From a virus (Duplodnaviria > Caudoviricetes), in the IMG/VR virus record IMGVR_UViG_3300033076_001147, positions 1-55,744 of that record: DNA of 55,744 nucleotides, one strand, 5' to 3'. Under the pieces are notes generated by a model that saw nothing but the letters and a program-made list of their open reading frames with translations, made no database searches and was not told the origin of the DNA. Numbering within the stretch: the stretch's first letter is position 1; each line of letters begins with the position of its first letter. Below are positions 2,935 to 52,058 of the stretch, piece after piece. Both the position numbers and the translations under genes were made by a program.

Positions 2935-3197
2935 GCGCCATCGAGATAGGGCACGGGCAGACGGCGCGCCGGCTTTGCATCTACGAGTTCGCGGACCGTT
3001 ACGGGGTTCCGTGTTCCCTCCAGAAGTCGAGCCTTGCGACGGAGGATGCCATCTGGTTCGGGGCGAACGGCCCCGCGCCAGGGCGCGCAGACACGCCCCG
3101 CATGCACCTCACGCAGGACCACGTTCGTGCGCTGCTACCGCTGCTCACGCACTTCGCGGAGACGGGCGAGCTTCCGGCGCCTCGGAGCGGCCCGTGA
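2931..3197 (+). CDS. conserved phage hypothetical protein
   Basis: CSLQKSSLATEDAIWFG...RMHLTQ...LLPLLTHFAETGEL resembles a widespread small phage protein. Start and stop are coupled to the neighbours. Confidence 0.7.
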   Translation: MSAIEIGHGQTARRLCIYEFADRYGVPCSLQKSSLATEDAIWFGANGPAPGRADTPRMHLTQDHVRALLPLLTHFAETGELPAPRSGP

Positions 3198-3916
3198 GCG
3201 CGGGGCCGCGCCTCGGGCGCCAGGAGGCCGAGCGCGTCGCCGCGTTCTTGACCCAGCTCGTCAAGCCTGTGAGCGAAAGCGTTCTCGTCGTCGGCTCGCT
3301 TCGCCGGGGAGCCGCGACCGTTGGCGACGTGGAGCTCGTCATCGTGCCGACCGTTGAGCGGACGCCGCTCGCGCGCGACGCGGAGCAGCTCGACCTGTTC
3401 GGCACCGCGGCGCCGAAACCCCAGGAGTACACGGAGAGCGTTCCACTCCTGGGGTTCCTGGACGGCATCTCGCGCCTTACCGACCCGAGAGCCGGCGGGA
3501 GCCCTGTGCAGTTCTACGAGGGCGCCGCCGGGCCTTTCCACGCAACCCTGACGCGAGGGCCTCAGTGGGGGCGCGTGTACCGCAAGGTCAACGTCACGCT
3601 GTGGGAGGCCGGACACCTCGACTTCCCAGTTGACCTGTTCCTGGCAAGCCCGGCGAACGTCGGCTGGGTGACGGTCTTGCGGACCGGCCCGAAGGACTGG
3701 AACCTCTGGCTTCTGCACGGCATGAAGTCTCGCGACCTCCGGTCGCAGGACGGCTTCATATGGGCTGGCGACAGACGGCTCGACACGCCGACCGAGGACA
3801 GCGTGTTCTCCCTGCTCGGCCTGACCTATGTGCAGCCAGAGGACAGGAGCGTCGTAGATGGCGAAGACGAGGCCGCGCGAACGCGGCGATGGTGGAGGCT
3901 AAGCCATGGCGGGTAG
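3194..3916 (+). CDS. minimal family X DNA polymerase (Pol beta nucleotidyltransferase fold)
   Basis: VGSLRRG...GDVELV, PVDLF, LRTGP and TEDSVFSLLGLTYVQPEDR thumb motifs. Confidence 0.85.
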   Translation: MSAGPRLGRQEAERVAAFLTQLVKPVSESVLVVGSLRRGAATVGDVELVIVPTVERTPLARDAEQLDLFGTAAPKPQEYTESVPLLGFLDGISRLTDPRAGGSPVQFYEGAAGPFHATLTRGPQWGRVYRKVNVTLWEAGHLDFPVDLFLASPANVGWVTVLRTGPKDWNLWLLHGMKSRDLRSQDGFIWAGDRRLDTPTEDSVFSLLGLTYVQPEDRSVVDGEDEAARTRRWWRLSHGG

Positions 3917-4079
3917 ACCAGTGAAGACCAGAGATCGGCGCCTTGCCGAGTGCGGGAAGGCGCTCGGCACCGCCTCGCGACTGGCGGACGCCATCGCGTT
4001 CCTGACGCTTATTGCGGCAGCCGTCGCCGACGGGCCTTGGCAGGCCACCTGCGCCGCCGTCAAGATCGCCAAGGAGTGA
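3906..4079 (+). CDS. small hypothetical protein (57 aa)
   Basis: ATG after GGAGG; its stop lies within the RBS region of the next gene. Confidence 0.45.
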   Translation: MAGRPVKTRDRRLAECGKALGTASRLADAIAFLTLIAAAVADGPWQATCAAVKIAKE

Positions 4080-4081
4080 CC

Positions 4082-4373
4082 ATGACTCGCCAGTGCGCGA
4101 AGGCTCCATGCCCAACCTGCCCATACCGGAAGGACGTCCCTTCCGGCGTGTGGGACCCAAGCGAGTACGCGAAGCTGCTGGAGTACGACAAGCCGACGGT
4201 TCTGCGCCGGCTGGGTCGGGACCGTGGACCCCTCCGTCTTCGCCTATCGGAGCCCGGTTCCACTGTTCAAGTCTGGCGCCCAGGCAGCAAGGCACGGGCT
4301 CAGGGCTGTGTTGAGGCCAGGGGGCGCCGCAAAGCGTGCAGTCGCGCGCATACTCATGAGGAGGATGAAATGA
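4082..4373 (+). pseudogene. DUF6283-like Cys-rich protein, internally deleted and frameshifted
   Basis: N-half PCPTCPYRKDVPSGVWDPSEYAKL is in one frame. C-half CAGWVG...SPVPLFKSGAQAARHG is in the +1 frame from ~4200 and ends in an ATGA overlap with the next gene. Confidence 0.65.
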
Positions 4374-4633
4374 CCCAGATACCGCCAAAGACCGTCACAG
4401 CGCTCCAGGACGTAGCCCTGGAGCGCGACCATCAACGCGAGAGGTACGGGGAGCAGGCCGGCAAGCCACTCGCCGAGTGGGTCGTCGTGCTCGCGAAGCA
4501 CTTCGGACGGCTCGCCGGCGCACTCCTCGACGGAGAGAGCACCAAGGGCAGGACTGTCATCCGGTGGCACGCCATCCGGGTCGCCGCCGTCGCTGTCGCC
4601 CTCGCCGAGGCAGCGTCAGAGGGCGGCCCGTGA
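4370..4633 (+). CDS. MazG-like all-alpha NTP pyrophosphatase fold, acidic motif degenerate
   Basis: ERDHQRERYGEQ...EWVVVL...IRVAAVAVA pattern; the expected EExGE reads KHFGR. Confidence 0.55.
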   Translation: MTQIPPKTVTALQDVALERDHQRERYGEQAGKPLAEWVVVLAKHFGRLAGALLDGESTKGRTVIRWHAIRVAAVAVALAEAASEGGP

Positions 4634-4788
4634 GCTGGCGCCTTGCGAGGGACCTGTTTGCGCTCTGGGTGCTATCCAACCTCCACCCCGACGTAACCCC
4701 CGCCGGCTCAGCCGCCATCATCGTTTCTGGAGCGGCCATCGGCCTTGCCATCGCCAGCGTCGAGGACCGACTCAGGCGACGGAGGTAG
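4630..4788 (+). CDS. small membrane protein
   Basis: GTGA coupling; hydrophobic segments and an Arg-rich tail. Confidence 0.45.
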   Translation: MSWRLARDLFALWVLSNLHPDVTPAGSAAIIVSGAAIGLAIASVEDRLRRRR

Positions 4789-4791
4789 TTC

Positions 4792-5478
4792 ATGGGAAGC
4801 CAGTTCAAGATCCGATCGGTTCCGTCCGGCACGTCGCCGACCTACCGCATGGACGGCAGCGCGTCCGCGTCCGGGGCAATGGGGCGTCGCGAGACGTTCT
4901 TGCGACAGCACCTCCCGTTCGCTCAGAGCGTCTGCGCCTCATGCTATCGCCCGTCGTGCTGCTACCAGATTGTCGCGGTCACGGAGGCCGAAGCTGAGGC
5001 CATCCTCGTGATGGGCAAGGGCATCATCCTGCGCGACAACGGCATTGGCCTGCTCCGGCTCGCTGAGCAGGCGAGGGACGAGATCGAGGCTAGCGCCGAG
5101 GACGACGACGAGACGGCCTCCCGGTACTTCCTCAAGGGCCGCCCGTGTGCCTTCCTGACACCGGAGGGCCGCTGCGGGATCTACGCGGGCCGCCCGGACG
5201 CCTGCGCAACGCACCTCCTTTTGGAGGGGACTGTCGACGGATGCGCGCACAAGGAGTCCGAGGCCGGGGAGCCCGTCAACGATCCGAACGAGCAGGGCTA
5301 CCTCGATGCCAGCACCGCAAGGGAGCTGCTCATGCGAGCCCGCGCAAAGAACGATGGGACGCTGACCATCTACAGCGGGCTGGCCCTGGCACTCCTCTCC
5401 GTCGTCATCAAGAATGCCCCGAGCGCCGGAGCGTTCCTGCGCCGCGAGGGCTTTGGAGACGTTGCCTCCCGCCTTTAG
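4792..5478 (+). CDS. YkgJ/FliB-like cysteine-cluster (Fe-S or Zn) protein
   Basis: CASCYRPSCC ... CAFL ... CGIYAGRPDAC. Confidence 0.8.
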   Translation: MGSQFKIRSVPSGTSPTYRMDGSASASGAMGRRETFLRQHLPFAQSVCASCYRPSCCYQIVAVTEAEAEAILVMGKGIILRDNGIGLLRLAEQARDEIEASAEDDDETASRYFLKGRPCAFLTPEGRCGIYAGRPDACATHLLLEGTVDGCAHKESEAGEPVNDPNEQGYLDASTARELLMRARAKNDGTLTIYSGLALALLSVVIKNAPSAGAFLRREGFGDVASRL

Positions 5479-6020
5479 GGGCAGGGCCAGGGAAGGCCGC
5501 CGGAGGCCCTCCAGATAGCCCTTGCGACCTCCTGGGGCGCCAGGGCATCGGCGGCAACCCGGACGCCTCCCAGAGCCTCCGCAAAGCGGGCCGCCTTCGT
5601 CTCTCTGCCGGCAGCCCAGCCCTCGGCCTGCTTAGAGCCGCGGGCTGCGCGCCGCGCGGCAAGCACGGGGCGGGCGGCCTCAAGAAGCACGCACGACAGC
5701 GAGTAGCCGCAGGCCAGGAGGTCTCCGCAGAAGCGGTCGACAGACAGCCTGTCCCCGTCGGACAGGAGCACTGGAGAGGCCAGCGTCGCCACGTCCTTTG
5801 CGGCGTACACGACCGCGTCCATCGGGAGCGTATCGCACCCGGGGTACGGCCCCGTCCTATGGCCCAGCTCGGCGGCAACCAGCCGGCCGCCGAGACTGTA
5901 AGTCGTCACCTTCGTGCGACCGACAACCTCAAGGCTTTTCGACAGCCCAGCGACGAGGGCCGACACGGCCGCGGACTTTCCGACGCCGGGGGCGCCGACT
6001 ACGAAAACGCACTTCTTCAA
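5475..6020 (-). CDS. P-loop kinase resembling phage base-hypermodification (5hmU DNA kinase-like) kinases
   Basis: GAPGVGKS Walker A, GCDTL, DGDRL and RRAARGSKQ...W..GRETK lid motifs. Coupled to the TET/JBP gene. Confidence 0.7.
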   Translation of the reverse strand: MKKCVFVVGAPGVGKSAAVSALVAGLSKSLEVVGRTKVTTYSLGGRLVAAELGHRTGPYPGCDTLPMDAVVYAAKDVATLASPVLLSDGDRLSVDRFCGDLLACGYSLSCVLLEAARPVLAARRAARGSKQAEGWAAGRETKAARFAEALGGVRVAADALAPQEVARAIWRASGGLPWPCP

Positions 6021-6850
6021 GGCTTCACCTTCACCTTTGCCGCCATCGAGGCCTCTCGCGCCGTTCGGCGCTGCCGGCGCAAGCCATCTTCAAGGGCCGC
6101 GGACGCACAGCCCTTCATCCCGGCCAGGGAGTAGTAGACGACCGAGACGCGGTACGAGTCGGCCCCGTCGCACTCAATCGGCGTCACCCCATGTAGAAAC
6201 TTGTGCCCGCGGAACAGGAGCGCGTACCCGTCGTCAGCCGGGAGGGCGACACCATACTCCGGCATCGAGAGCAGGCCGCCGCCCGTCCCGCGGCGAACGA
6301 CGGGCATCGCAGACCAGATCGGGAAGTTGAGCCTGTCGAAGTGGTAGGGGAGCTCAGACGTCATGTTCACCACGCCGCTCGTCCAGGGCGTGTCCTTGTG
6401 GATCCGCCACTCGGGGAGGACGCGGGCGGCCGTCGCCATGTCGGTTGCGGCTTCCGACGGAAGCTCCCTTCGCAGGACACCCCAAAGCCACGGGGCGACC
6501 TCGGCTATCGCCATTGCCGCTTCGGGGGCCTCGGAGGACAGCTTCGTCTGGGAGCAACCCTCGCGCTTCTGCGTCACCTTCTTGTGAACGAAACCAAAGA
6601 TCCGGGACTTGTTCCCGAACCCCATGCTGGAGCGGAGCGTCGAGCCGTAGTGCAGCCCCAGGACGGCTCGCCGGAGCGACCCCCTCATGTCGGCCGGCAT
6701 CTTCACGACGAGGGCGATGCACTCACCCGTCGCCTCGTCCTCTACGCGAGCTTCGCCACGGAAGCTCGCAGGGACCACCGGGACCGTCGCCCCGATTAGG
6801 GCCGAGGCCTTTTCGCGAGACATCACGCGACGGACCATCACCTTGTTCAT
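6017..6850 (-). CDS. TET/JBP-family 2OG-Fe(II) dioxygenase
   Basis: WTSGVVN...YHFD(HxD)RLN...GGLLSMPEY...LHGVTPI...YRVSVVYY(RxS). The ATG at 6850 overlaps the upstream stop. Confidence 0.88.
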   Translation of the reverse strand: MNKVMVRRVMSREKASALIGATVPVVPASFRGEARVEDEATGECIALVVKMPADMRGSLRRAVLGLHYGSTLRSSMGFGNKSRIFGFVHKKVTQKREGCSQTKLSSEAPEAAMAIAEVAPWLWGVLRRELPSEAATDMATAARVLPEWRIHKDTPWTSGVVNMTSELPYHFDRLNFPIWSAMPVVRRGTGGGLLSMPEYGVALPADDGYALLFRGHKFLHGVTPIECDGADSYRVSVVYYSLAGMKGCASAALEDGLRRQRRTAREASMAAKVKVKP

Positions 6851-7422
6851 CGGCAGCGCCTCGCGGCGGCGAGCAGGGCCGCCGAGTTGTCGTAAACCCC
6901 GAACCGCGCCCTGGCCTTCTCGAACAGGGCGTTCACCGCCGCAAACTCGTCCAGCCCGTACTTTACTGTCACCGCCTTCACGGCGGCCGCCGAAGCTCCG
7001 GGCGCGGGAGCCGGAGACAGCGAGGGGGCCTCTTCGAGGTACGCGACCATGTCCGAGATCTCCGACTCGGAGAACCCGGCGACCGCCGCAAGCTCGGGAG
7101 GGACGGAAGAGGCCAGCTCGGCGAGCAGGCGCTCGTCCCAGGACCCAAGCTCGGCCACTCGGTTGTCGGCAACCGCGTACGTCTTCGCGTCCTCCAGCGA
7201 CATCGTGACGTAGACGACCGGGACGACCGAAAGCCCGAGCTTGAGCGCGGCCGAGTAGCGCGTGTGGCCCGCGACGATCATCCCATCGGGCAGGGCGATG
7301 ATCGGGGCCATGAAGCCGAACCGCTTTATCGACCCGGCAACCGCGTCCACGGCGCCCGAGTTGAGGCGCGGGTTCTTGTCCCACGGGTGGAGGGAGCCGA
7401 CAGGGACCATCACGCCGCGCAT
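6847..7422 (-). CDS. ParB/Sulfiredoxin-like domain protein
   Basis: NPRLN...SIKRFGF.API...IVAGHTRY.AA...ADNR. Confidence 0.88.
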   Translation of the reverse strand: MRGVMVPVGSLHPWDKNPRLNSGAVDAVAGSIKRFGFMAPIIALPDGMIVAGHTRYSAALKLGLSVVPVVYVTMSLEDAKTYAVADNRVAELGSWDERLLAELASSVPPELAAVAGFSESEISDMVAYLEEAPSLSPAPAPGASAAAVKAVTVKYGLDEFAAVNALFEKARARFGVYDNSAALLAAARRCR

Positions 7423-8054
7423 ACAGCCTCCTCAAGGAGCGCGCGGACGCCCGCGGCCACACTCCCGCCCTTGTGGAGCACGGCCGCCATCACCTCGGCG
7501 TACTCCGGGGCGCTGAACTCCAGGACGAACGCCCGGCTGTCGCCACCCTCGTACGCATCCAGACGCTCCTTCATCGGCTTCTCCTTCCGGATTCCTTTCT
7601 GCCGCTCCGGCTTGGGCTCAGGCGCGGCCTCGCCAACACCGGGCGCGGCTTCGAGTGCAGGAACCGCGGCGACCGAGACGCCAGCAAGCGACGAAAAGTC
7701 GAACTGCATCAGCGAGGCGTCGAAGTCGTCCATCGCCTGCACCTGCTCCATCAGGAGCGGGACGTCCCACTTACTCTCCTCGCCGAGCCGGTTGTCCGCC
7801 AGGACGTAGGCGGCGGCCTCCTCGTCCGTCAGGTCAACGTACCTCACCGGGACGGACAGGAGCCCTAGCGAGAGGGCAGCTTGGAGCCGCCCGTTCCCGG
7901 CGACAACGAGACCTGTTGACCGCTGGACGACAAGCGGCGCAACGAACCCGAAGCGGCGAAGCGACGCCGTGATGGACTCCAGCGCATGAACGCGCGGGTT
8001 CCCCGGGTACGGCTTCACGAGGCCAATCCCAACTTCTTCAACGACCGAGCTCAT
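7410..8054 (-). CDS. ParB/Sulfiredoxin-like domain protein (paralog)
   Basis: PYPGNPR...SLRRFGF.APL...VAGNGRL.AA...ADNR. Confidence 0.88.
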   Translation of the reverse strand: MSSVVEEVGIGLVKPYPGNPRVHALESITASLRRFGFVAPLVVQRSTGLVVAGNGRLQAALSLGLLSVPVRYVDLTDEEAAAYVLADNRLGEESKWDVPLLMEQVQAMDDFDASLMQFDFSSLAGVSVAAVPALEAAPGVGEAAPEPKPERQKGIRKEKPMKERLDAYEGGDSRAFVLEFSAPEYAEVMAAVLHKGGSVAAGVRALLEEAVCAA

Positions 8055-8152
8055 CTGGCGACCCCTCCCGAGGCTCCGTTCACGCGGAACCTATACGAAC
8101 ATGCTCGGAAGGTATACACCACGGAAAAGGCTTGGCCGCCTGGGAGGGGCTC

Positions 8153-8734
8153 TTGACTGGCGTAACTGACGACGACTACAAGCGAATGGTCGAGAGTTAC
8201 GTTCGCGAGCAGACCGTCGCAGCCGTCATGGAGGCAGGGGGCGTCAGCCGGTTGACGGCCCGGAAGTACATCGAGCACGGCGCCCCGAAGCTGGGTCGCC
8301 CGAGCATCCGGAGCGTGTACGCGGCCCAGGCGACCCAGGCCGCCGCGGCGACGGCCAGGGAGACGGTCTATGACCTCGCCAAGGCCAACGACGACACGGT
8401 CAAGTTGGCCCGGTCGATGAAGGGGCTCCTGGCCCGCCAGATTCAGAAGATGGCGACCAGCGGGGAGCTGTTCCGAGACCCGGTTCGCGCCCTCGAAGTC
8501 GTCGCCAAGGTCGAGACGCTTGCGCTCGGAGGGGCGACCGACGTGCTCAAGCTCCAGGCCGAGAAGGGTCCTGGGGACCCGCTCGCGGACCTCACGGACG
8601 ACGAGTTGTTCGCGTTCATCGAGGCCGGCATGGCCGTCCTCAAGCTCCACCAAGGCGTGCGGCTACAGGTGCCGCCCGCTCACACAGCCGCGACCGTCGA
8701 GGTCGTGGACCAAGCCGCCGCAGTAGCGGCGTGA
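8153..8734 (+). CDS. HTH protein, putative terminase small subunit
   Basis: TTG after GGAGGGG; N-terminal HTH-like segment, helical middle, DLTDDEL tail. First gene of the rightward unit that leads to TerL. Confidence 0.5.
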   Translation: MTGVTDDDYKRMVESYVREQTVAAVMEAGGVSRLTARKYIEHGAPKLGRPSIRSVYAAQATQAAAATARETVYDLAKANDDTVKLARSMKGLLARQIQKMATSGELFRDPVRALEVVAKVETLALGGATDVLKLQAEKGPGDPLADLTDDELFAFIEAGMAVLKLHQGVRLQVPPAHTAATVEVVDQAAAVAA

Positions 8735-8748
8735 ACAGGAGAGACTCC

Positions 8749-9165
8749 ATGGGCAAGCACGAACTGACCCCGGCCGAGGCCCTCGGCCTCATTGACCCCG
8801 CCGCCGTGCGCGGCTGGTCGACGGCGAAGATGCGGGATTTCATGCGTCGCAAGGGCATCGCGCGCGGCGGGCGCGAGAGCAAGGAGGAGCTGGCCCAGAA
8901 GATCATCCTGGCGCTGGACCTCAAGGAGTCGACCTTCACGGTTCGGTGCCCAAAGTGCGGGCTCAACGCGACAGGCGACGGCATCGCGAAAGCGTTCGGC
9001 TTCCGCACCATCGGCAAGGCCACAATCCCGCAGTCGTGGTGCCGGGCGTGCCGACGCGGCGACAGCAAGGCGCGGGCCGAGCGGAAGCGCGCCGAGAAGA
9101 GGGCGGCCCTGGTTGCGAAGCACTCCGCGAGCGTGGACGCCAAGCACGACGGCGGCGCCGCATGA
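8749..9165 (+). CDS. basic Zn-finger protein
   Basis: CPKC...FGFR...PQSWCRAC, with a short helical N-domain. Confidence 0.65.
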   Translation: MGKHELTPAEALGLIDPAAVRGWSTAKMRDFMRRKGIARGGRESKEELAQKIILALDLKESTFTVRCPKCGLNATGDGIAKAFGFRTIGKATIPQSWCRACRRGDSKARAERKRAEKRAALVAKHSASVDAKHDGGAA

Positions 9166-10495: not shown

Positions 10496-11011
10496 ATGCA
10501 CCCGAACGTGCTTATCGTCGACGACTCCCACGCGAGACACGCGACCATCCTGACCATGCTGGGCAAGGTCGCCCCGCTCAAGGGCTGGACCATCGTCTCG
10601 CGCTACTCGCCGGCCGGCGTCAGCGACGCGGAGCTGGTCCAGGCCGACATCGTGTTCCTCGACCATGACATGTGCCTCGGCTCACACCCCATTGACGAGC
10701 CGTCGCCGCTGCCGCTCGCCAACTTCTGCCCGACCTCCGGCGAGTCGGAGCGGTGCACCTGCCCTACCGGGCTCGACCTTGCCGAGCGGCTCTGCGACCT
10801 GCTCTCGCCGGAGCCCGGGCACCGGGCGGCGCGCCCCGCGGTCGTCGTTCACTCGGCCAACGTCATCGGCCGCGGCCGGATGACCGACCTTCTGCGGGGC
10901 CGCTTCCGCGAGGTCTACACGGTTCCTGGGGCCGTCGCAGGGCATGGGAGCTGGGCAGCGTTCCGCGAGCGCGCCGAGCGGGCCAGCGACGCGCGGGAGG
11001 ACGGCGCATGA
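10496..11011 (+). CDS. cyclic-phosphate-processing receiver-like (cREC) domain protein
   Basis: LIVDD, FLDHDM, TG.DL and VVVHSANVIG...M motifs. Confidence 0.72.
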   Translation: MHPNVLIVDDSHARHATILTMLGKVAPLKGWTIVSRYSPAGVSDAELVQADIVFLDHDMCLGSHPIDEPSPLPLANFCPTSGESERCTCPTGLDLAERLCDLLSPEPGHRAARPAVVVHSANVIGRGRMTDLLRGRFREVYTVPGAVAGHGSWAAFRERAERASDAREDGA

Positions 11012-11807: not shown

Positions 11808-13577
11808 ATGCCTGCGAAGGGAACAAGCCGTTCTGGGCGCAAGGTTCACGGCCGCGCAGCTTCCCGTCGGAGAGTCACGCCGGAGGAGCGCGCGAAGGCG
11901 GCGGCTGACGCCAAGGCCCTGAGCGAGGCGAGGCAGGCCGAGGCCGCGCAGCGCCGAACGCAACGCGCCGAGAAGGCGGCCAGGGCCGCTGCCCTGACCC
12001 TGCCGAGCCAGAACCTGCAGGCGGCCGGCGTAAAGGCGGCTGTCGCCGCGGACGGGTCGTTCCTCTGGTGGACCCCACGCCGAGAGGTGCGCGTGCCGTC
12101 GCAGGAGGCGGCGCTCCGGGCGATGGGCTCGGGCGTGTTTGGGCGATGGGCGCGCAAGGCCGCCGAGCCGACGCCGCAAGGGCTTTGGGCGTTCCTCCAG
12201 CTCGTGCCGAAGGACCACACCACCCAGGCGCGGTGGAAGTTGGCGCCCCACCACTGGGAGTGGCAATCGGCCGCGTTCCTCCACCGTGAGCTGAACATCA
12301 TCGCACCCATCGGGCACGGCAAGACCGAGCAGCTCAGCTACGCGCGCACGGCCTGGGAGATCGGCTGCAACGTCCGCCTTCGGCACGGGCTTGGCAGCAA
12401 CACCGCGGAGCAGGCAATCCGGACGACACGGGCCATCCGGCACCTCATCGAGTCCTCGGACGACTACAGGCGCGTGTTCCCGCACGTCCTCCCGGGCGAC
12501 GTCTGGACCGACCGGGCCTTCACCGTCCAGCGGCCGAACGTCGGCGACCGCAACCCGACCGTGCAGGCATTCGGCCTTCACGGCGCGCTGCTTGGCGCCC
12601 GCCTGGAGCGCGCCGGGCTGGACGACATGGACGACTTGGAGAGCACCTGGACCAAGGACGCGCGGCACAAGGCCCAGGAGTGGACCCGCACCAACGTCCT
12701 GTCGCGCCTGGGCGAGGCCGGCAGGCTCCGCTCTGTGCAGACGGCATGGCACCCAGAGGACCACGCGCACTCGTTCCGCGCGCTCGGCATGGTCACCTAC
12801 GTCTACCGCATCCGGAACCCGGACGGCTCCTACCTCTGGAGCGCGTACTGGAATGCGGACCGCGAGGCCCGGATGCGGCGCCTGCTCGGCGAGACCGCGT
12901 CGGCGCGAATGCTCGACAGCCGGCCGCGCACCGGCGACCTGAGCCGGTTCCAGGAGGAGTGGCTCAGGGTCGCGCTCGCCAACGGGCTAGGGCGCCCGAC
13001 GTACAGGGCTGTCCAGGCCGACAACGGCTCCGGCATCTTCGTCGGCGTGGACCTTTCGACAGGCATCGAGGACGGAGACCTTGCCAGCTTCGCCGTTGTT
13101 CTTTGCGACCGCGAGGGCCGCCGGCACCTGCTCACCATCGAGTCGGGGCGATGGAACGGGCCTGTCATCCTTGGCAAGATCCGCGAGTTCGCGAAGCGCT
13201 ACCCGGGCGCAACGTTCGTCGTCGAGAACAACGCGGCGCAGGACTACATCTGCCAGTTCGCAGCCGAGCAGGTTGGCAACATCTTCCCCTACACGACCGG
13301 GCGCGCGAAGGCCGACCCGCGCTTCGGTATCGAGTCCCTGGCGACCGAGATGGCGAACGGCCGCTGGTACATCCCGTGCTCACATCTTGGGCCGAGCCTC
13401 CCGCTGAGCTACTCGGCCGACGCCGAGGTAACGGCGTTCATCAGCGAGTGCTTCGACTACCTGCCGGGAAAGCACACGGGCGACCGCCTGATGTCCGTCT
13501 GGTTCGCCCTGGAGGGCATCCGTCGGCAGTTCGGCGCAATGGCCGAGAACGTGGACCTCTGGCAGGCTCGCCGCTGA
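11808..13577 (+). CDS. terL: terminase large subunit
   Basis: APIGHGKT Walker A, GLDDMDD Walker B, GVDLS nuclease motif, VENNAAQ, HTGDRLM. Start uncertain. Confidence 0.9.
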   Translation: MPAKGTSRSGRKVHGRAASRRRVTPEERAKAAADAKALSEARQAEAAQRRTQRAEKAARAAALTLPSQNLQAAGVKAAVAADGSFLWWTPRREVRVPSQEAALRAMGSGVFGRWARKAAEPTPQGLWAFLQLVPKDHTTQARWKLAPHHWEWQSAAFLHRELNIIAPIGHGKTEQLSYARTAWEIGCNVRLRHGLGSNTAEQAIRTTRAIRHLIESSDDYRRVFPHVLPGDVWTDRAFTVQRPNVGDRNPTVQAFGLHGALLGARLERAGLDDMDDLESTWTKDARHKAQEWTRTNVLSRLGEAGRLRSVQTAWHPEDHAHSFRALGMVTYVYRIRNPDGSYLWSAYWNADREARMRRLLGETASARMLDSRPRTGDLSRFQEEWLRVALANGLGRPTYRAVQADNGSGIFVGVDLSTGIEDGDLASFAVVLCDREGRRHLLTIESGRWNGPVILGKIREFAKRYPGATFVVENNAAQDYICQFAAEQVGNIFPYTTGRAKADPRFGIESLATEMANGRWYIPCSHLGPSLPLSYSADAEVTAFISECFDYLPGKHTGDRLMSVWFALEGIRRQFGAMAENVDLWQARR

Positions 13578-43977: not shown

Positions 43978-44227
43978 GCCTCAGAGGCCGGAAGCGGCCT
44001 CGGCTCGATGACGCATCCGCTCATGCTTCCCACGCTCGATGGGACTAGCGGATGCCTCATCGAGCCAAAGTCGCTTCACCTTCAACCACAGAGGCAGCCG
44101 AACGACGTCCGGTTAGACGTCGGCACCACGTTCCGAGCGGTTCGAAGCGTGGCGAGCCCGCTGCATGATGCGGGAGGCGCACTCGGCAAAGCGCACGCTG
44201 GCGCCACTGGCGCCCAAAGGATCCACC

Positions 44228-45127
44228 ATGAGCACCAACGAAATCCTCGCCGACGTCGAAGCCCTCTACAAGGAGGACAAGGCCGCCTCCCTCGCCAAGA
44301 AGGCCGAGGCCAAGGCCGCCGGCCGGGCGGCCGCCAAAGCCGCCAAGGACCTCTACAGCAAGGCCAACGAGACGGCCGCCAAGATGGCGACCGCGGCCCC
44401 GTCCGCGGTCGGCGAGGAGGTTGTCCTCGCCGACATGAGCGCCTCCGGCCAGGAGGGCGTTGACGCCGGCATCCTGCAGCCGCTCCCGGCCGAGCCCGGA
44501 CCTCAGGCCGGGGCCGAGGCGAAGGCTGATGCCGAGGCCGAGGCGCGCGCCTCGGCCAAGGGCAAGACGACGGCCCAGGCCCGCAAGGCCTACAAGGCGA
44601 CGTTCGGGACTGACGCCCCGAAGGGCGTCGTGGACCCGGTTACGCTGTACCGCGCCATCAACCTCGGCAAGGCCATCACGGCCGAGCCGAAGGCCGAGCC
44701 GAAGGCCGAGCCGAAGGCCGCATCCGGCTCGGCCTGGATGCCTGTCGACGGCCTCGCCTGCGAGGCGGCCCTCCTCCACCACTTCCCGACGCCGTCGTCC
44801 TACAACGACGACAGCACGCCCATGTCTTGGACGCGGCGCCTGGCGAAGGAGATCATCAAGGCGAGCCTCGCTGGCAAGCCGGCCAGCAAGGCCGAGCTTG
44901 TCGCGGCCATGAAGGCCGCCGGCTACTCCGGCAGCATCGACTCCAAGCTGGAGCGCCTCGGCCGGGCGCCCAAGGCGGCCGCGCCCAAGCCGGCCGGGAC
45001 GGCAACCAAGCCCGGCCCGGTCGACGCTTTCCGCGAGTACCTGGGGACCCTGAGCCTCGACACGGCGCTGGCTGTCCTCGGTGTCCTCGTCGAGGAGTAC
45101 GAGCACAAGAAGAAGACTGCCGCCTAA
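44228..45127 (+). CDS. Ala/Lys-rich hypothetical protein
   Basis: AAAGGA RBS, AEPK repeats, strong codon bias. Confidence 0.7.
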   Translation: MSTNEILADVEALYKEDKAASLAKKAEAKAAGRAAAKAAKDLYSKANETAAKMATAAPSAVGEEVVLADMSASGQEGVDAGILQPLPAEPGPQAGAEAKADAEAEARASAKGKTTAQARKAYKATFGTDAPKGVVDPVTLYRAINLGKAITAEPKAEPKAEPKAASGSAWMPVDGLACEAALLHHFPTPSSYNDDSTPMSWTRRLAKEIIKASLAGKPASKAELVAAMKAAGYSGSIDSKLERLGRAPKAAAPKPAGTATKPGPVDAFREYLGTLSLDTALAVLGVLVEEYEHKKKTAA

Positions 45128-45603: not shown

Positions 45604-45776
45604 ACACGTTCGACGCCATGAAGGCCGCCGAGGCGGCCCTGGACGAGGCCCTCCTCCGGTACGAGGAGGCGCTCAAGACCGGCAAGGACATCGCGACGGC
45701 GCAAGCCGCCGCGCTCCGAGCCATCGACGAGGACGAGGAGGCCATGCGCGCCTTCCTCAAGGAGCGATCGCAATGA
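45600..45776 (+). CDS. small helical protein
   Basis: Coupled at both ends. Confidence 0.55.
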   Translation: MNTFDAMKAAEAALDEALLRYEEALKTGKDIATAQAAALRAIDEDEEAMRAFLKERSQ

Positions 45777-46699
45777 GCGCGAACATCACCGGCGCCATCG
45801 CCGGCCGGCACCTCGGCTCCATCTTCTGGTGGAAGCTGCCCAAGGCCCCTGTCCCTCACCAGCGTGTGTCGTCGTTCCTGTCGTCGCAGGCAACCACCCA
45901 TCACGACCGGCTGCTCAACATGCTGCCTGCCGCGCCCGAGCCGCGCGTGGTGTTCGGGCGAGCGGCCAAGGTGCTGAAGGAGGGCGGAAAGCTCGACAGC
46001 CGCAAGATCGTTGACACGGACGACGAGGTCGGCTTCGCAATCGCGGAGCCCCTGGTTGTGGGCCGGGGCGTGAGCTACCGGCACACCGCCGACGTCACCT
46101 GGGCGCGCTCGCCGAGCGGTGGCCCTGGCTCCGTCTCCGCGACGGCCTGGACGAAGGGCGCGACGGCTCTACTCACAGAGTTCAACGCCGGGCTGGACGC
46201 GCTCGGCGGCCCGGAGCTGACGGAGCTGTGCAGCTCCGTCGCTAAGAAGGTCGGAGCCATCCCGCTCCGGCCGAGCGGGGGCGTGTACTGGCTGCCGAGC
46301 AGCTCCCCCGGCTTCATTCTCCTGCATGGCCTGGGCGACATCTTCGCCCTCGCCAAGAACGACGGGGCGCGCCTGAGCATCACGCCGCAGTTCGCGACTC
46401 CCGACGCGGAGCAGGCGCTCGGCTCGGCCGCCAAGGACGCGGTCCTCGGCGAGCTTGTCGAGGTCGCTGCCGAGATCAAGGGGTTCACGGCGACGACGCG
46501 CGACCTCACCATCGACGCGCGACTGGAGAAGCTGCGCGACCTCAAGACGCGCGCCGACTTCGCGGCCGAGCTACTCCGCGAGTCGGCCGAGTCCATTCAC
46601 GCGGCCATCCAGCCGCTCCAGAAGGCCCTCATGGCCCAGCTGCTCGGGCAGGACCCGGGCTTCGACACCATCGACATCGACACCTTCACCAGCCTCTGA
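45773..46699 (+). CDS. DUF6744/DUF3150-like MoxR-vWA-associated protein
   Basis: LGSIFWW start, LRPSGGVYW, coiled-coil C-terminus; precedes the AAA gene. Confidence 0.55.
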   Translation: MSANITGAIAGRHLGSIFWWKLPKAPVPHQRVSSFLSSQATTHHDRLLNMLPAAPEPRVVFGRAAKVLKEGGKLDSRKIVDTDDEVGFAIAEPLVVGRGVSYRHTADVTWARSPSGGPGSVSATAWTKGATALLTEFNAGLDALGGPELTELCSSVAKKVGAIPLRPSGGVYWLPSSSPGFILLHGLGDIFALAKNDGARLSITPQFATPDAEQALGSAAKDAVLGELVEVAAEIKGFTATTRDLTIDARLEKLRDLKTRADFAAELLRESAESIHAAIQPLQKALMAQLLGQDPGFDTIDIDTFTSL

Positions 46700-46733: not shown

Positions 46734-47891
46734 ATGACCGTCCTAACCAAGTTCATCGCCCTGGCCGATCACCTCAAGTCGCAATTCGTCGACCGCGATG
46801 CCATCATCGACGCGTCGCTGGCGGCCATCGCGAGCGGCCAGCACGTCCTGCTCCTCGGCGAGCCCGGCACCGGCAAGTCGGCGCTGGTCAACGCCATCTG
46901 CTCGTCCATCGACGGCGCCAGCTACTTCGGCTGGCTCCTGACCAAGGCGAGCCCGCCCGAGGAGCTGCTGGGGCCGCTCAGCCTCAGGGGGCTGGAGAAC
47001 GACGAGTACCGCCGCGTGACGGCGGCCAAGCTCCCCGAGGCGCACGTCGCCTTCCTCGACGAGATCTGGAAGGCCAACAGCACCGTTCTGAACGCGCTCT
47101 TGTCCATCCTCAACGAGCGCACGTTCTACAACGGGGCGACGCCCCAGAAGTGCCCGCTGGTCGCTGCCTTCGGGGCCTCGAACGAGTACCCGACCGACAC
47201 CGAGCTGGCGGCCCTCTACGACCGCTTCCTGGTACGGTTCTGGGTCGAGCGCCTCGACCCCGCCGGGCTCGTCGCCATGCTCGGCAAGCCCGAGCCGCGC
47301 CCGCTCCCCGGGGCGCTCACCCTCGCCGACATCGAGACGGCGCGACGCGAAGTCGCGGCCGTGAAGCTCTCCCAGGCCGGACTCGACCTCATGGCGAGTT
47401 GTAAGAGCGCGGCCGACGGGGCTGGCTTCAGCGCCAGCGACCGGCGCTGGCGCCAGATCGCCCGCTACCTGCGCGCCGTTGCGTGGTACGGGGGCGAGGC
47501 CGAGGTCAGCGACGCCACGCTCATGGCGCTCAAGGACGTGCTCTGGCGGGAGCACAAGGAGCGGCCGGCCGTCATGACGACCATCGGCAAGCTCGCCAGC
47601 CCCATCCTGACGGAAGCGCTGGAGATCGCCGACACCGTCAAGGCGGTCGTCAAGGAGTCCAGCCGTCAGGCCGGCGAGGCCGACGTCGCCTACACGACGC
47701 GCCTGGCCAAGGCCAGCTCCGACGTTCAGCGTGCGGTCGCCCGGCTCCGGGCACTCAACGTGGCGGGCTCCCCCTCCGCGGCTGCCAAGGTCAACGCGTT
47801 CATCGCGGAGGCCCAGAAGCAGCACAAGGTGCTCGCTCGCGAGGCGCTTCGGCTGTCTGGCCTCGACACCGCCTCCCTCATGGGAGGCTGA
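46734..47891 (+). CDS. MoxR/RavA-like AAA+ ATPase
   Basis: GEPGTGKS, FLDEIWKANS..LNALL..LNER, ASNE, ALYDRF, SDRRW. Confidence 0.92.
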   Translation: MTVLTKFIALADHLKSQFVDRDAIIDASLAAIASGQHVLLLGEPGTGKSALVNAICSSIDGASYFGWLLTKASPPEELLGPLSLRGLENDEYRRVTAAKLPEAHVAFLDEIWKANSTVLNALLSILNERTFYNGATPQKCPLVAAFGASNEYPTDTELAALYDRFLVRFWVERLDPAGLVAMLGKPEPRPLPGALTLADIETARREVAAVKLSQAGLDLMASCKSAADGAGFSASDRRWRQIARYLRAVAWYGGEAEVSDATLMALKDVLWREHKERPAVMTTIGKLASPILTEALEIADTVKAVVKESSRQAGEADVAYTTRLAKASSDVQRAVARLRALNVAGSPSAAAKVNAFIAEAQKQHKVLAREALRLSGLDTASLMGG

Positions 47892-47893
47892 CC

Positions 47894-48088
47894 GTGACAC
47901 CGAAGCAACTACTGCTGGAGGCCGCCCTGCTCGTTGAGCGGGCGGCCGGGACGCTGGACTCATCGGAGCACCGCTGCCCGACGTGCTCCGGTCGACGGTT
48001 CAACGACTTCGAGGCCGCCAAGCTCGCTCGCGAGCTGGACACCATCATCAACAGGCTCCGCAAGGGAGCCTCGGAGCTGAAGCGATGA
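47894..48088 (+). CDS. small CxxC protein
   Basis: GGAGG RBS, CPTC, coupled to the vWA gene. Confidence 0.55.
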   Translation: MTPKQLLLEAALLVERAAGTLDSSEHRCPTCSGRRFNDFEAAKLARELDTIINRLRKGASELKR

Positions 48089-49623
48089 CAGACGCCAACA
48101 TCATAGTCGAGCGCACCGACGTCGCCGACGTCACCGCGCTCGCCGAGCGCGTGGGGGCTGACCTCGCGGCCCTGCTCCCTCGGGCAGAGGCCGCGACCGC
48201 CCTTCCGGACGGCACGCGCGCTCTCGGGGCGTGGGAGCGCCTCCTAGCAAAGGGCGCTGAGAAGCGCCTGGACTGGAAGGCGTCGGCCGACCGCGAGGAG
48301 GGCCGGGCCGGCGTGTCGCAGATGCGACATGAGACCTTCGGGCGCCTGTATGGCGACCCGAAGGAGCACGCCGCTGTGAAGCGGGAGCACCGCTGGATGA
48401 AGCGCGTCCACGAGGCGCTCGACCAGATCCCCGACTTCGAGGCTCTCCGCGCGCGGACCCACGGCGACGAACTGTGGTCCGAGATGGCCGTCAAGGCCAT
48501 GTACGAGGCGGCCATGAAGGCGCTCCCCGACGCGACCGAGCGCGAGAAGCGAGCGGCCGAGGCGAGGGCGCGCGTGGAGGGCCTTGCCGGCATGGCTAGC
48601 CTGGGCATCCCTTGCACCGGCGATGACCTCGGCGAGGCGCTGGCCGAGCTGGAGGCGCTCGACGAGGAGGAGACGGCCGAGGAGGACAACGCCGCGCTGC
48701 GGGCGGCCCTCCGCAAGGCCATCGGCGAGGTCACGCAGGACATCGACGCCACGGCAGACGCCCTGGCGATGTTCCAGGGGGCTGGCGGCAAGGGGGCCGG
48801 CGCGCAGGAGAAGGACATGCGCGACCCGGCCAAGCGGGCCGCGCTGGCCAAGCGGCTCAAGGGATCGCGCGACCTCAAGGCCATCATGGCCGAGGCCGGT
48901 CGTCTCCGTCGCATCATCGCCGCCAAGCGGGCAATGCGAGCGAGCCACGCCCCCGAGGAGCTGTGCGACATCGAGCTGGGCGGCGACATCGAACGACTGC
49001 TCCCCGCCGAGCTAAGCCGCATGGCTCACCCGCTGCTCAAGCTCGACACCTACCGCCGCATCATGGAGCGGTCGGCGCTCCAGAGCCGGCTCCGTGGGCG
49101 TGAGAAGCAGGGGCGCGGCCCCATCGTCGTCTGCGTGGACGAGAGCGGCTCGATGAACGGGGCTCGTAACACATGGGCGAAGGGGCTGGCGCTCGCACTC
49201 ATGGACCTCGCCGGGGCCGACGGCCGAGGCTTCGCCCTGGTCGCATTCGACGCCAGCGTGCAAAGCGTGTACGTCCGGAAGGCCAAGGAGCCGCATGACC
49301 CGGCCAAACTCATCGACGTCGTGGCGACGTTCTCCGGTGGCGGGACAGCTTTCGAGCCGCCGCTCAAGAAGGCGCGCCAGCTCATCGAGCGCGAGGGCCT
49401 TGAGAAGGCGGACATCATGTTCGTCACCGACGGCGAGGCATACATCGGCGACACCTTCGCCGACGAGTTCACGGCGTGGCGGGAGGCGAACGGCGTTAGC
49501 GTGTACGGATTCCCCATCGGGACCGAGGTCAGCACGCTCAAGCGGTTCTGCACGACGATCGTGAAGCTGTCCGAGGCCGGCCAGGACGACGGAGGCGTTA
49601 CGGACGCCGTCGCCTCCATCTGA
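48085..49623 (+). CDS. vWA (ViaA-like) domain protein
   Basis: DIERLLPAEL, GPIVVCVDESGSM (MIDAS), GGTAF, FVTDG. Confidence 0.9.
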   Translation: MTDANIIVERTDVADVTALAERVGADLAALLPRAEAATALPDGTRALGAWERLLAKGAEKRLDWKASADREEGRAGVSQMRHETFGRLYGDPKEHAAVKREHRWMKRVHEALDQIPDFEALRARTHGDELWSEMAVKAMYEAAMKALPDATEREKRAAEARARVEGLAGMASLGIPCTGDDLGEALAELEALDEEETAEEDNAALRAALRKAIGEVTQDIDATADALAMFQGAGGKGAGAQEKDMRDPAKRAALAKRLKGSRDLKAIMAEAGRLRRIIAAKRAMRASHAPEELCDIELGGDIERLLPAELSRMAHPLLKLDTYRRIMERSALQSRLRGREKQGRGPIVVCVDESGSMNGARNTWAKGLALALMDLAGADGRGFALVAFDASVQSVYVRKAKEPHDPAKLIDVVATFSGGGTAFEPPLKKARQLIEREGLEKADIMFVTDGEAYIGDTFADEFTAWREANGVSVYGFPIGTEVSTLKRFCTTIVKLSEAGQDDGGVTDAVASI

Positions 49624-51717: not shown

Positions 51718-52058
51718 CGCGAGACGGCTACCCAATCGCCGCCAACAAAGTGCCGTGCCGCGCCTGCCCCTGGCGCAGGGAGCAGGGCGGCCGGCACGAC
51801 GACAGCCTACCGAGCGCCCTCTTGGAGGGTGTTTCGTGGGGTTGTCACACCTCTGGCGTTACTCCGTCAGGGGACGCACTGCGCATCTGCGCCGGCTGGC
51901 TATGTTCCGAGGACGCGAAGTCGGAACGCATCGTCAGGTTCGCTAGAGACAACGGGTGGATCCCAAACCAAGACGAGCAGCGACAGCACGCCCGAGAGGC
52001 CGGCATCGAGCTGTTCACAGACTACCGAGCCGTCCTGGCTCGCAAGGAGAGTCCATGA
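51705..52058 (+). CDS. DUF6283-like Cys/His protein
   Basis: PCRACPWRR...GCH...RICAGW. Confidence 0.6.
   Translation: MGLVTRDGYPIAANKVPCRACPWRREQGGRHDDSLPSALLEGVSWGCHTSGVTPSGDALRICAGWLCSEDAKSERIVRFARDNGWIPNQDEQRQHAREAGIELFTDYRAVLARKESP

Follow-up and report, generated by a model that had tools for sequence, protein, structure and literature searches.

The window, that is, the whole 55,744-nt stretch of phage DNA analysed here, carries at positions 5475-8054 four overlapping minus-strand genes, which encode two ParB-like proteins (ParB1 and ParB2), a dioxygenase with a TET/JBP fold and a kinase of the Ploopntkinase3 family. The cassette is a divergent member of a known system, in a recurrent variant that lacks an amino-acid:DNA transferase (AADT, formerly aGPT-Pplase). 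It probably acts as a ParB-associated phage thymine-dioxygenase system, in which T would be converted to 5-hydroxymethyluracil (5hmU) and then phosphorylated by the kinase, the phosphorylated base being either the end product or handed on to an unrecognised activity. This interpretation is largely in print already as regards the T to 5hmU chemistry and the role of ParB as activator: ParB-dependent, post-replicative conversion of T to 5hmU by phage thymine dioxygenases has been reported in vivo and in vitro (O'Toole et al., PNAS 2026, PMC13229309), and the available text of that paper presents ParB as activating the oxygenase on dsDNA. What the window adds is a very divergent member of the cassette family, from a new high-GC myovirus.

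Cassette layout and encoded proteins

A first-pass annotation of this DNA had described four overlapping genes forming the only minus-strand unit. Both points hold, as the genes overlap by 13, 4 and 4 nt and, in a GC3-based gene call, the other minus-strand candidates are all shadows within longer plus-strand ORFs. The features are as follows.

8054..7410, minus strand: ParB1, 214 aa, ATG start; ParB-like (PF02195 and phrog_620)
7422..6847, minus strand: ParB2, 191 aa, ATG start; paralogue of ParB1 (PF02195 and phrog_620)
6850..6017, minus strand: TET/JBP-fold Fe(II)/2-oxoglutarate dioxygenase (5mYOX), 277 aa (PF12851, phrog_6059, AF2/Foldseek)
6020..5475, minus strand: P-loop kinase, Ploopntkinase3 family, 181 aa, TTG start (PF18751)
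8055..8131, no strand: divergent intergenic region of 77 bp that separates ParB1 from the opening gene of a long plus-strand block; presumed cassette promoter region

Purine-rich motifs resembling ribosome-binding sites lie 5' of the cassette gene starts. A 481-aa ORF for the oxygenase was rejected; the ATG at 6850 is the true start, giving 277 aa. A search of 4600-8800 for sigma-70-like sites gave none, a result that is uninformative for a high-GC host. The ORF at 8132-8734, earlier put forward as a putative terS, finds no backing from Pfam, PHROG or hhalign.

The oxygenase matches Tet_JBP (PF12851) with E 2.2e-7 and 30.7 bits, under the gathering cut-off of 34.9; since the oxygenases of phages Tonitrus, MementoMori and Stinger also score below it (26.5-32.2 bits), the model is a weak one for this clade. 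The protein also matches phrog_6059 (E 1.3e-61), whose PHROG label, 'queuine tRNA-ribosyltransferase', is a mislabel for the oxygenase. The HxD, H and RxS residues reported earlier are indeed kept: H170-x-D172, H220 and R234, and C248 as well, do not vary across the 32 homologues aligned, and S236 is invariant in a 4-sequence alignment. When the AF2 model (pLDDT 86.2, pTM 0.81) was searched against the PDB with Foldseek, a check that the first-pass annotation had suggested, TET-family chains were the top matches, NgTET1 being the best (E 4e-12, TM 0.62), followed by CMD1, CcTet and TET2. The modelled oxygenase has a TET fold with an intact Fe/2OG site. Past C248 there is a 29-aa tail, in which a helix is modelled at 251-273 and A252, E254, R262, R265 and E266 are invariant; O'Toole et al. 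(PMC13229309), in the text available, describe a C-terminal helix past the conserved Cys as exclusive to the ParB-dependent subclass. The protein falls in the ParB-adjacent phage TET/JBP (5mYOX) group and is most likely a thymine dioxygenase acting on DNA, a prediction drawn, as to the substrate, from family and gene context.

The kinase matches Ploopntkinase3 (PF18751) with E 1.2e-17 and 64.5 bits (cut-off 27), shares 29-33% identity with its counterparts in Tonitrus, MementoMori and Stinger, and retains Walker A and each of the 21 columns that are invariant in a 23-sequence alignment. The structure search suggested for this protein confirmed a P-loop kinase fold in its AF2 model (pLDDT 85.8), with matches in the PDB to generic P-loop kinases only, such as adenylate kinase and gluconate kinase (best E 5.8e-5, TM 0.54). 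Similarity to M6 gp54, a characterised 5-HMUDK, is remote (hhalign probability 82%, E 1e-5, 123 columns), and neither blastp nor hmmsearch matched the two proteins. Because the kinase family adjoins AADTs in related cassettes, the window enzyme would naturally be taken to phosphorylate 5hmU in DNA, and the sequence predicts a 5-hydroxymethyluracil DNA kinase.

Both ParB-like proteins exceed the ParB_N (PF02195) cut-off of 26.3 bits, ParB1 with E 2.8e-6 and 27.7 bits and ParB2 with E 4.9e-6 and 26.9 bits, and both match phrog_620 (E 7.7e-36 and 1.4e-34, respectively). ParB1 comprises a nucleotide-binding domain (NBD) at the N-terminus, a Pro/Ala/Glu-rich linker of ~50 aa and a C-terminal domain (CTD); its NBD and CTD align with 33 oxygenase-linked ParBs, and N19, R21, G53, D87 and N88 are kept. 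ParB2, encoded directly 5' of the oxygenase with an overlap of 4 nt, has a shorter linker, and its NBD and CTD both align with the oxygenase-linked ParB family. The two paralogues are 44% identical across 98 NBD residues, and their C-terminal parts have diverged. In the PDB, the family profile finds chains of Noc and ParB (E 5e-10 to 5e-5), with coverage of profile positions ~4-125 only. Judging by their length (214 and 191 aa) and linker-like sequence, ParB1 and ParB2 appear to have no recognisable central HTH.

Related loci and enzymes not found

The neighbourhood survey of homologues that had been called for covered 84 related records, 30 of them with the kinase, and 67 bounded loci. It bore out the linkage to ParB, which lies directly 5' of the oxygenase in 71 of 71 related records with at least 700 nt of upstream sequence and in all 7 loci from Actinomycetota genome contigs. 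It did not bear out a unique cassette: an AADT is present in 22 of the 30 kinase-bearing records and lacking in 8, and the supposedly novel 'stand-alone' arrangement recurs in complete genomes of cultured phages, namely Microbacterium phage MementoMori and Mycobacterium phage Stinger. PF18724 gave 0 matches in these two genomes, in one 90%-complete relative and in one DTR-complete relative, and its positive controls scored (Tonitrus, E 2e-24; G007, E 5e-20). On the kinase tree, the AADT-less state needs at least 2, and most parsimoniously 4, state changes and is found in several independent lineages; across whole genera of cultured phages the kinase is kept without an AADT. ParB-oxygenase-kinase without a transferase is a recurrent, apparently stable architecture.

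The kinase is present in 18 of 18 terL-bounded AADT loci, and no bounded AADT locus is without it. A TAGT-like glycosyltransferase is encoded in 39 of the 67 bounded relatives and never together with the kinase (0/67), so the two enzymes look like alternative uses of 5hmU; in three further bounded loci (3/67), ParB and the oxygenase stand without either.

Six-frame searches of the whole contig with PF18724 (ADDT), PF18746 (aGPT-Pplase3), PF20691 (TAGT), PF00145 (C5-MTase), PF00535 (GT2), PF13692 (GT1), PF00303 (ThyA/hydroxymethylase) and PF02511 (ThyX) gave 0 matches at E<=10 or E<=1. The earlier statement that no C5-MTase, thymidylate-synthase homologue, glycosyltransferase or aGPT-Pplase is recognisable thus stands, and no cryptic MTase or aGPT-Pplase, the discovery of which among the hypothetical ORFs was to count against the proposal, came to light in profile searches of the contig. 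For the AADT, tblastn of Tonitrus gp6 against the window returned only noise; a local AADT HMM, validated on the characterised M6 gp51 (E 1.5e-13), reached E 0.3 at best; and in hhalign comparisons of window ORFs of 90 aa or more (64-gene list), probabilities did not exceed 2.1% for AADT and 2.2% for TAGT-like enzymes. A Pfam scan of 54 window ORFs found a single polymerase-like match, a 240-aa PolX-like protein (3194-3916), in line with the claim that no replicative polymerase can be recognised. Most of these 54 ORFs have no family match, for example 939-2135, 44165-45127 and 45773-46699; because many ORFs of this very divergent phage are of this kind, 'not recognisable' is a weaker statement than 'absent'. 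With no C5-MTase and no ThyA/ThyX-type hydroxymethylase, the contig appears to encode no pre-replicative or 5mC route. Pairing of phage TETs with C5-MTases is no longer a sound premise, as O'Toole et al. (PMC13229309), in the text available, give a C5-MT in just 6% of the pathways that they mined.

Proposed route and its alternatives

After replication, the TET/JBP-fold enzyme would hydroxylate the C5-methyl group of thymine in double-stranded phage DNA to give 5hmU, and one or both ParB-like proteins would switch the oxygenase on, as in other members of the group; this dependence, like the substrate, is suggested by family and context. The P-loop kinase would then move a phosphate from ATP onto the new hydroxyl, yielding 5-phosphomethyl-uracil in DNA. 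Because no AADT or glycosyltransferase is encoded to consume it, the phosphorylated base may be the end product or may be passed to an unrecognised phage or host activity. The first-pass proposal of thymine hydroxylation followed by phosphorylation gains from the ParB-adjacent grouping of the oxygenase, the lack of a C5-MTase, the AADT-linked kinase family and the lack of a known transferase; phospho-hmU, which it named as a possible final product, is a candidate for that role.

We advance only tentatively the reading that 5-phosphomethyl-uracil is the terminal modification in packaged DNA of AADT-less phages, made post-replicatively by a ParB-activated dioxygenase and the kinase, with the diverged ParB pair possibly setting where or when. 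According to the available text of PMC8989533, 5-HMUDK makes 5-PmdU, and 5-PmdU alone protects DNA against NcoI. Phosphorylation of 5hmU is reported in PMC6457204, as far as its text is available, to cut transcription by E. coli RNAP in vitro to 37% of that on the unmodified template, so a genome-wide phosphorylated base would be costly unless made late or at few sites. Targeting of packaging by ParB is an older hypothesis, which Burke et al. (PNAS 2021, PMC8256090) credit, in the text available, to Aravind and coworkers. If 5-phosphomethyl-uracil is the product, the natural DNA bases would gain a new, phosphorylated kind, and the ParB activator, oxygenase and kinase would form a minimal enzymatic route to charged, restriction-resistant DNA; if it is not, a novel class of 5-PmdU-acting enzyme would still be to find. 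The AADT-less cassettes of cultured phages (MementoMori and the Stinger/Cooper type) make the end product directly measurable.

The first two steps might run as proposed with 5-phosphomethyl-uracil as an intermediate, its phosphate being swapped for another group by an unrecognised non-AADT phage enzyme or a host activity; this is possible, if somewhat doubtful. 5-PmdU is an intermediate in every characterised pathway covered in the available text of PMC8989533, and the constant pairing of kinase and AADT in the bounded AADT loci, the many window ORFs without a family match and the extra GT1, GT2 and cytidylyltransferase genes of the AADT-less relative G004 all argue for it. However, the families common to the window and to MementoMori, Stinger and G002 are only ParB, oxygenase and kinase (tblastn at E<=1e-3, a search that itself missed the kinase), none of these four has GT2 or GT1 families, and the window yields no match to AADT, TAGT-like, DAO or PALP profiles. 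It is unlikely that what the oxygenase makes, 5hmU or a more oxidised base, is the functional end point while the kinase serves nucleotide metabolism or NTP supply to ParB, or is the decaying remnant of an AADT cassette. Such a role would suit the very long branch of the window kinase (5.25 changes per column), its generic structure matches, the 'adenylate kinase' label of its relatives in GenBank and the three loci with neither kinase nor glycosyltransferase, but the kinase keeps all invariant family residues, several independent lineages, including the whole cultured-phage genera, have kept it without an AADT, and a housekeeping nucleotide kinase that never accompanies the glycosyltransferase would be odd.

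Whether a transferase is missing merely because the contig is incomplete depends on the earlier description of the genome as near-complete, against which the database record is linear with a CheckV value of 67%. ORFs are cut at both contig ends, and the Logan contig of the single run holding this sequence ends at window position 19. Yet adjacent parts of one 609-aa phage primase/helicase align to the two contig ends, residues 52-301 to the right-end ORF (Toprim) and residues 353-567 to the left-end ORF (DnaB_C), with an implied gap of roughly 10-30 codons between the ends; as the ends resemble two halves of one gene, the genome is probably almost complete despite the CheckV value. Moreover, the transferase of the relatives sits inside the cassette between oxygenase and kinase, where the window genes overlap by 4 nt, and complete genomes share the AADT-less state, which together make incompleteness a very unlikely explanation. 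Action of the oxygenase on 5-methylcytosine from a host methyltransferase, with phosphorylation of 5hmC by the kinase, is highly improbable. Iterative oxidation of 5mC is a further activity of the characterised phage T-dioxygenases (PMC13229309, available text), and kinase action on 5hmC was considered for some contigs by Burke et al. (PMC8256090, available text). The contig nevertheless has no C5-MTase, its relatives show a link to enzymes of thymidine hypermodification (AADT) but none to C5-MTs, and in the accessible part of PMC6457204 commercial 5-HMUDK switched off transcription on 5hmU templates, not on 5hmC templates.

Relation to known systems

Post-replicative conversion of T to 5hmU by a TET/JBP enzyme, as proposed for the window, also underlies base J formation by trypanosome JBP1/2 and the phage ParB-oxygenase-TAGT cassettes; there, 5hmU is glucosylated, whereas a TAGT-like glycosyltransferase is missing from the window. 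With the M6, ViI and PaMx11 pathway (Lee et al. 2018, 2021) the proposed window route shares the logic of a P-loop kinase that converts 5hmU in DNA to 5-PmdU, the M6 gp54 kinase being only remotely similar to that of the window. Unlike in the route proposed for the window, 5hmU there enters at replication via a dUMP hydroxymethylase and an AADT always consumes 5-PmdU. Replacement of dUMP hydroxymethylase by TET/JBP beside hmU kinases and AADTs has been described by Lee et al. (NAR 2021).

Like the ParB-dependent T-dioxygenases of O'Toole et al. (5mYOX clade C1, e.g. 5mYOX176/ParB176; PMC13229309), the window has a TET/JBP-fold oxygenase adjoining a short ParB of NBD, linker and CTD. In both, as far as the available text describes those systems, the ParB has no obvious DNA-binding domain (for the window, judging by length and linker-like sequence), the oxygenase has a C-terminal extension and no C5-MT neighbour, and P-loop kinases and terminase genes lie in the neighbourhood. 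The window has two ParB paralogues where those systems have one, and the likeness is one between described features on their side and genes on that of the window.

The cassettes of Rhodococcus phage Tonitrus (PMC11955845) and Gordonia phage CaiB (PMC9302106) likewise combine ParB, TET/JBP and Ploopntkinase3 genes with short overlaps and an adjoining terminase; identity between window and Tonitrus is 42% for the oxygenase and 33% for the kinase. They differ from the window in carrying an AADT (Tonitrus gp6: PF18724, E 9e-23) and in orientation, the window cassette being inverted relative to the packaging genes. MementoMori (Mementomorivirus) and Stinger/Cooper (Coopervirus), which are not myoviruses of the window lineage, share with the window an AADT-less ParB-oxygenase-kinase cassette adjoining the terminase. 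Their cassette genes are annotated as 'ParB-like nuclease domain protein / oxidoreductase / adenylate kinase' or as hypothetical, and a literature search found no functional study of them. Oxygenase identity between the window and MementoMori or Stinger is just 38-43%, and tblastn matches at E<=1e-3 are confined to ParB and the oxygenase. A second ParB (gp97) lies at the right end of MementoMori, which gives a ParB-ParB-oxygenase-kinase order spanning the genome ends, like that of the window.

The minus-strand cassette and its products

The cassette is the sole minus-strand unit of the window, as the first-pass annotation had stated, since in a GC3-based gene call all other minus-strand candidates lie inside longer plus-strand ORFs. 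The window, an entire virus record of 55,744 bp and 68% G+C, carries the four genes in the order ParB1, ParB2, oxygenase, kinase, with successive overlaps of 13, 4 and 4 nt and with purine-rich motifs resembling ribosome-binding sites 5' of the gene starts.

Genes of the cassette
8054..7410, minus: ParB1, 214 aa
7422..6847, minus: ParB2, 191 aa
6850..6017, minus: oxygenase, 277 aa; true start at the ATG at 6850, within a longer spurious ORF
6020..5475, minus: kinase, 181 aa; TTG start

The two ParBs score 27.7 and 26.9 bits against Pfam ParB_N (cut-off 26.3), the kinase matches Ploopntkinase3 (E 1.2e-17), and the oxygenase matches Tet_JBP at E 2.2e-7 and 30.7 bits, which is under the cut-off of 34.9. 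PHROGs assignments are consistent with Pfam for these genes; the oxygenase family, phrog_6059, is mislabelled 'queuine tRNA-ribosyltransferase', a label now carried by many actinophage records in RefSeq.

The motif residues of the oxygenase are indeed kept: H170-x-D172, H220, R234 and C248 are invariant in all 32 of 32 homologues. The best PDB matches of its AF2 model (pLDDT 86.2, pTM 0.81) are NgTET1 (E 4e-12, TM 0.62), CMD1, CcTet and human TET2. Past the invariant Cys248, the alignment and the AF2 model show a conserved, helical tail of 29 residues, and such a C-terminal tail is described as exclusive to ParB-dependent enzymes (O'Toole et al., PMC13229309, section 11). ParB1 and ParB2 share 44% identity in the nucleotide-binding domain and diverge beyond it. 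Each can be aligned to 33 oxygenase-linked ParBs across its N-terminal and C-terminal domains, the linker being shorter in ParB2. In the PDB, the family profile finds Noc and ParB chains, over the N-terminal domain only. In the ParB tree, duplication has at least two independent origins, and the pairing of the two window ParBs there depends on long, compositionally odd branches.

The kinase keeps 21 of 21 invariant family columns, and its model (pLDDT 85.8) is that of a P-loop kinase, for which the solved relatives are generic only. Its relation to M6 gp54, a characterised 5hmU DNA kinase (5-HMUDK), is remote: hhalign gives a probability of 82% and E 1e-5, and neither BLAST nor HMM search yields a match between the two. 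The RefSeq annotation of M6 gp54 (L086:13686-14249) as 'terminase small subunit' is a mislabel, which is also found on phrog_800, a weak match to the window kinase.

A CxxCxxCC protein (PF03692, E 5.5e-6), putatively Fe/Zn-binding, is encoded at 4792-5478 on the plus strand and converges on the kinase gene, the stop regions overlapping by 4 nt. A link between this protein and the cassette is unsupported, because none of 83 related records (the best 80 of 268 IMG/VR relatives and three phages) has a homologue close to the oxygenase.

Gene context among relatives and the missing transferase

At the DNA level, 56 phage records match, covering part of the oxygenase gene only (Mycobacterium 37, Microbacterium 15, Gordonia 3, Rhodococcus 1). 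An IMG/VR search with the single oxygenase protein returned no relatives and an alignment query was needed, which gave 268, the best 80 of them, each 41-47% identical, being kept. Together with MementoMori, Tonitrus and Stinger, which are cultured actinophages, and the window, these form a set of 84 records, compared by local HMMs and clustering. Within this set (best 80 of 268 plus four), a ParB precedes the oxygenase in 71 of the 71 records with upstream sequence of 700 nt or more, two ParBs occur in 7 of 84, a kinase in 30 of 84, and an amino-acid:DNA transferase (AADT) in 28 of 84. The content downstream of the oxygenase was scored in 67 records with a bounded cassette.

Content downstream of the oxygenase in 67 bounded records (from the best 80 of 268 relatives plus four)
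TAGT-like glycosyltransferase only: 39/67
AADT and kinase: 18/67
Kinase only: 7/67
None of glycosyltransferase, AADT and kinase: 3/67
Glycosyltransferase and kinase together: 0/67

A survey of homologous neighbourhoods, as proposed at the outset, shows that the AADT-less kinase cassette recurs in 8 of the 30 kinase records (best 80 of 268 plus four): the window, MementoMori, Stinger, and the loci L011, L023, L027, L032 and L074. On the kinase tree the AADT-less state involves at least two changes, most parsimoniously four. In L074 the gene order is identical to that of the window (ParB-ParB-oxygenase-kinase), followed by terS and terL. The same four-gene order is found in MementoMori, where, on a circularised or concatemeric form of the genome, ParB-ParB-oxygenase-kinase-terminase runs across the ends, the second ParB gene, gp97 (L096:2290-2973), lying at the right genome end. 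Searches of whole records, with Tonitrus and the relative G007 as positive controls, found no AADT in complete MementoMori, complete Stinger, or the relatives G002 (90% complete) and G004 (terminal repeats, 100% complete). Outside the cassette, no gene family common to the window, MementoMori, Stinger and G002 was found at tblastn E<=1e-3, a threshold at which the kinase itself is also missed.

Seven relatives were found in bacterial genome contigs, and every one belongs to Actinomycetota, a hint that the host of the window phage is actinobacterial. All seven have an upstream ParB; AADT and kinase follow in four, a glycosyltransferase in two, and a kinase alone in none.

The first-pass annotation had recognised no transferase, glycosyltransferase, C5-methyltransferase or thymidylate-synthase homologue, and six-frame searches of the whole contig bear this out, with zero matches to ADDT/aGPT-Pplase (PF18724, PF18746), TAGT (PF20691), GT2 (PF00535), GT1_4 (PF13692), C5-MTase (PF00145), ThyA-type synthase (PF00303) or ThyX (PF02511). 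A local AADT HMM, which detects the characterised M6 gp51 at E 1.5e-13, reaches at best E 0.3 on the window, and AADT, TAGT-like, DAO and PALP profiles give hhalign probabilities of at most 2.2% against those window ORFs that are 90 aa or longer. Absence here means only that no homologue is recognisable, because the phage is very divergent (best tblastn identities 23-31%) and many of its ORFs match nothing.

Proposed modification and its end product

ParB-dependent and ParB-independent phage T-dioxygenases were defined by O'Toole et al. (PNAS 2026, PMC13229309), who show that ParB activates the enzymes both in vivo and, with dsDNA as substrate, in vitro, and who note that the ParB-dependent enzymes are linked to GATases, P-loop kinases and AADTs. 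The AADT-containing cassette already appears in the genome announcements of Tonitrus (PMC11955845) and CaiB (PMC9302106), and TET_JBP is reported in place of a dUMP hydroxymethylase in some contigs (Lee et al., NAR 2021, PMC8989533). The cassette of the window is real and is a divergent member of this published kind of system; its AADT-less variant is recurrent and uncharacterised. A literature search at the level of listings and abstracts found no paper on an AADT-less cassette or on a natural end-product role for phosphorylated 5hmU (5-PmdU). For testing, cultured phages that share the variant are better suited than the window.

In the pathway that we judge most likely, with moderate confidence, the ParB-activated oxygenase would turn thymine of replicated phage DNA into 5hmU, which would then be phosphorylated by the kinase. 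ParB targeting of modification during packaging is a proposal of Aravind and coworkers, as cited by Burke et al. (PNAS 2021, PMC8256090). That the phosphate ester of 5hmU is itself the end product can be put forward only tentatively, at a rather low probability. 5-PmdU is the product of 5-HMUDK and by itself blocks NcoI, and AADTs displace its phosphate (Lee et al., PMC8989533), the solved structure of one AADT, PaMx11 gp46, being reported in PMC11472151; transcription by E. coli RNAP on phosphorylated 5hmU templates is reported to go down to 37% of that on the unmodified template (Vanikova et al., PMC6457204). Kinase and glycosyltransferase exclude each other, and an intact kinase has repeatedly been kept where no AADT is present; taken together, these points argue for a separate use of the kinase. 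However, the AADT-less relative G004 carries extra glycosyl- and cytidylyl-transferases, and many window ORFs lack a family match, both of which count against such a use. A handover of phosphorylated 5hmU to an enzyme of an unrecognised kind is the alternative, and an equally tentative one.

The complete, AADT-less G004 has GT2, an ORF of unknown kind, a cytidylyltransferase-like gene and GT1 together in one block (L100:3846-6612), as well as a second small AAA_33 kinase between terS and terL (L100:13527-13937), and the syntenic glycosyltransferase-type relative G003 has neither. Both records are complete, and the glycosyltransferase of G003 and the kinase of G004 occupy the same position; this 'clean swap' was not accepted as demonstrating a pathway based on the kinase alone, since a GT1/GT2/cytidylyltransferase block and a second AAA_33 kinase are also present in G004.

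Remainder and completeness of the contig

The Pfam scan covered 54 window ORFs and the PHROGs scan 20 of these.

Other features recognised on the contig
Left contig end: DnaB-type helicase end (Pfam)
3194-3916, plus: PolX-like protein, 240 aa; DNA polymerase beta palm and thumb matches (E 1e-5 and 5e-6)
3950-4633, plus: DUF6283 (E 3.8e-11)
10496-11011, plus: cREC_REC, cyclic-phosphate processing receiver (PF20274, E 8e-7), among small genes between cassette and terL
11808-13577: terL (PHROGs, E 2e-50)
46734-49623, plus: bpMoxR AAA+ ATPase (E 2.7e-53), then a VWA-domain protein
Right contig end: Toprim end (Pfam)
Further: portal and major head protein (PHROGs); RusA, GH25 lysozyme, HTH, PD-(D/E)XK and AAA_24; tail sheath and two Baseplate_J proteins

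The tail sheath and the two Baseplate_J genes point to a myovirus. No polymerase-like gene other than that of the PolX-like protein was recognised on the contig, and a role of this protein in oxidised-base repair is speculation. The earlier assignment of 8132-8734 as terS could not be verified: Pfam, PHROGs and hhalign comparison with three clusters of terS from relatives gave no match. A tRNA gene search of the window was negative, and the ESM Atlas gave no usable match for the 398-aa ORF at 939-2135 (Atlas model pLDDT 0.35).

The description of the genome as near-complete is at odds with the database, where the record is linear with a CheckV value of 67%; its support comes from the contig ends. 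Both ends (1-958 and 54586-55744) truncate open reading frames. A 609-aa Pseudomonas phage primase/helicase is matched over residues 52-301 by the right-end ORF (386 aa, Toprim) and over residues 353-567 by the left-end ORF (318 aa, DnaB_C); the frames of the two ORFs are one base apart, with about 10-30 codons apparently missing between them. Most simply, the ends would be two halves of one primase/helicase gene, and since they align to adjacent parts of one protein, the genome is taken as probably nearly complete and circularly permuted. One sequencing run, and no RNA run, contains the window, as Logan contigs; the Logan contig of that run ends at window position 19, which does not settle circularity or completeness.

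Upstream (5') of the bpMoxR/VWA pair are two ORFs of about 310 aa without a family match (44165-45127 and 45773-46699). A small plus-strand ORF at about 51720-52050 has, by eye, a Cys-Pro-x-Cys-Pro-(W/Y)-R motif like that of the DUF6283 ORF at 3950-4633.
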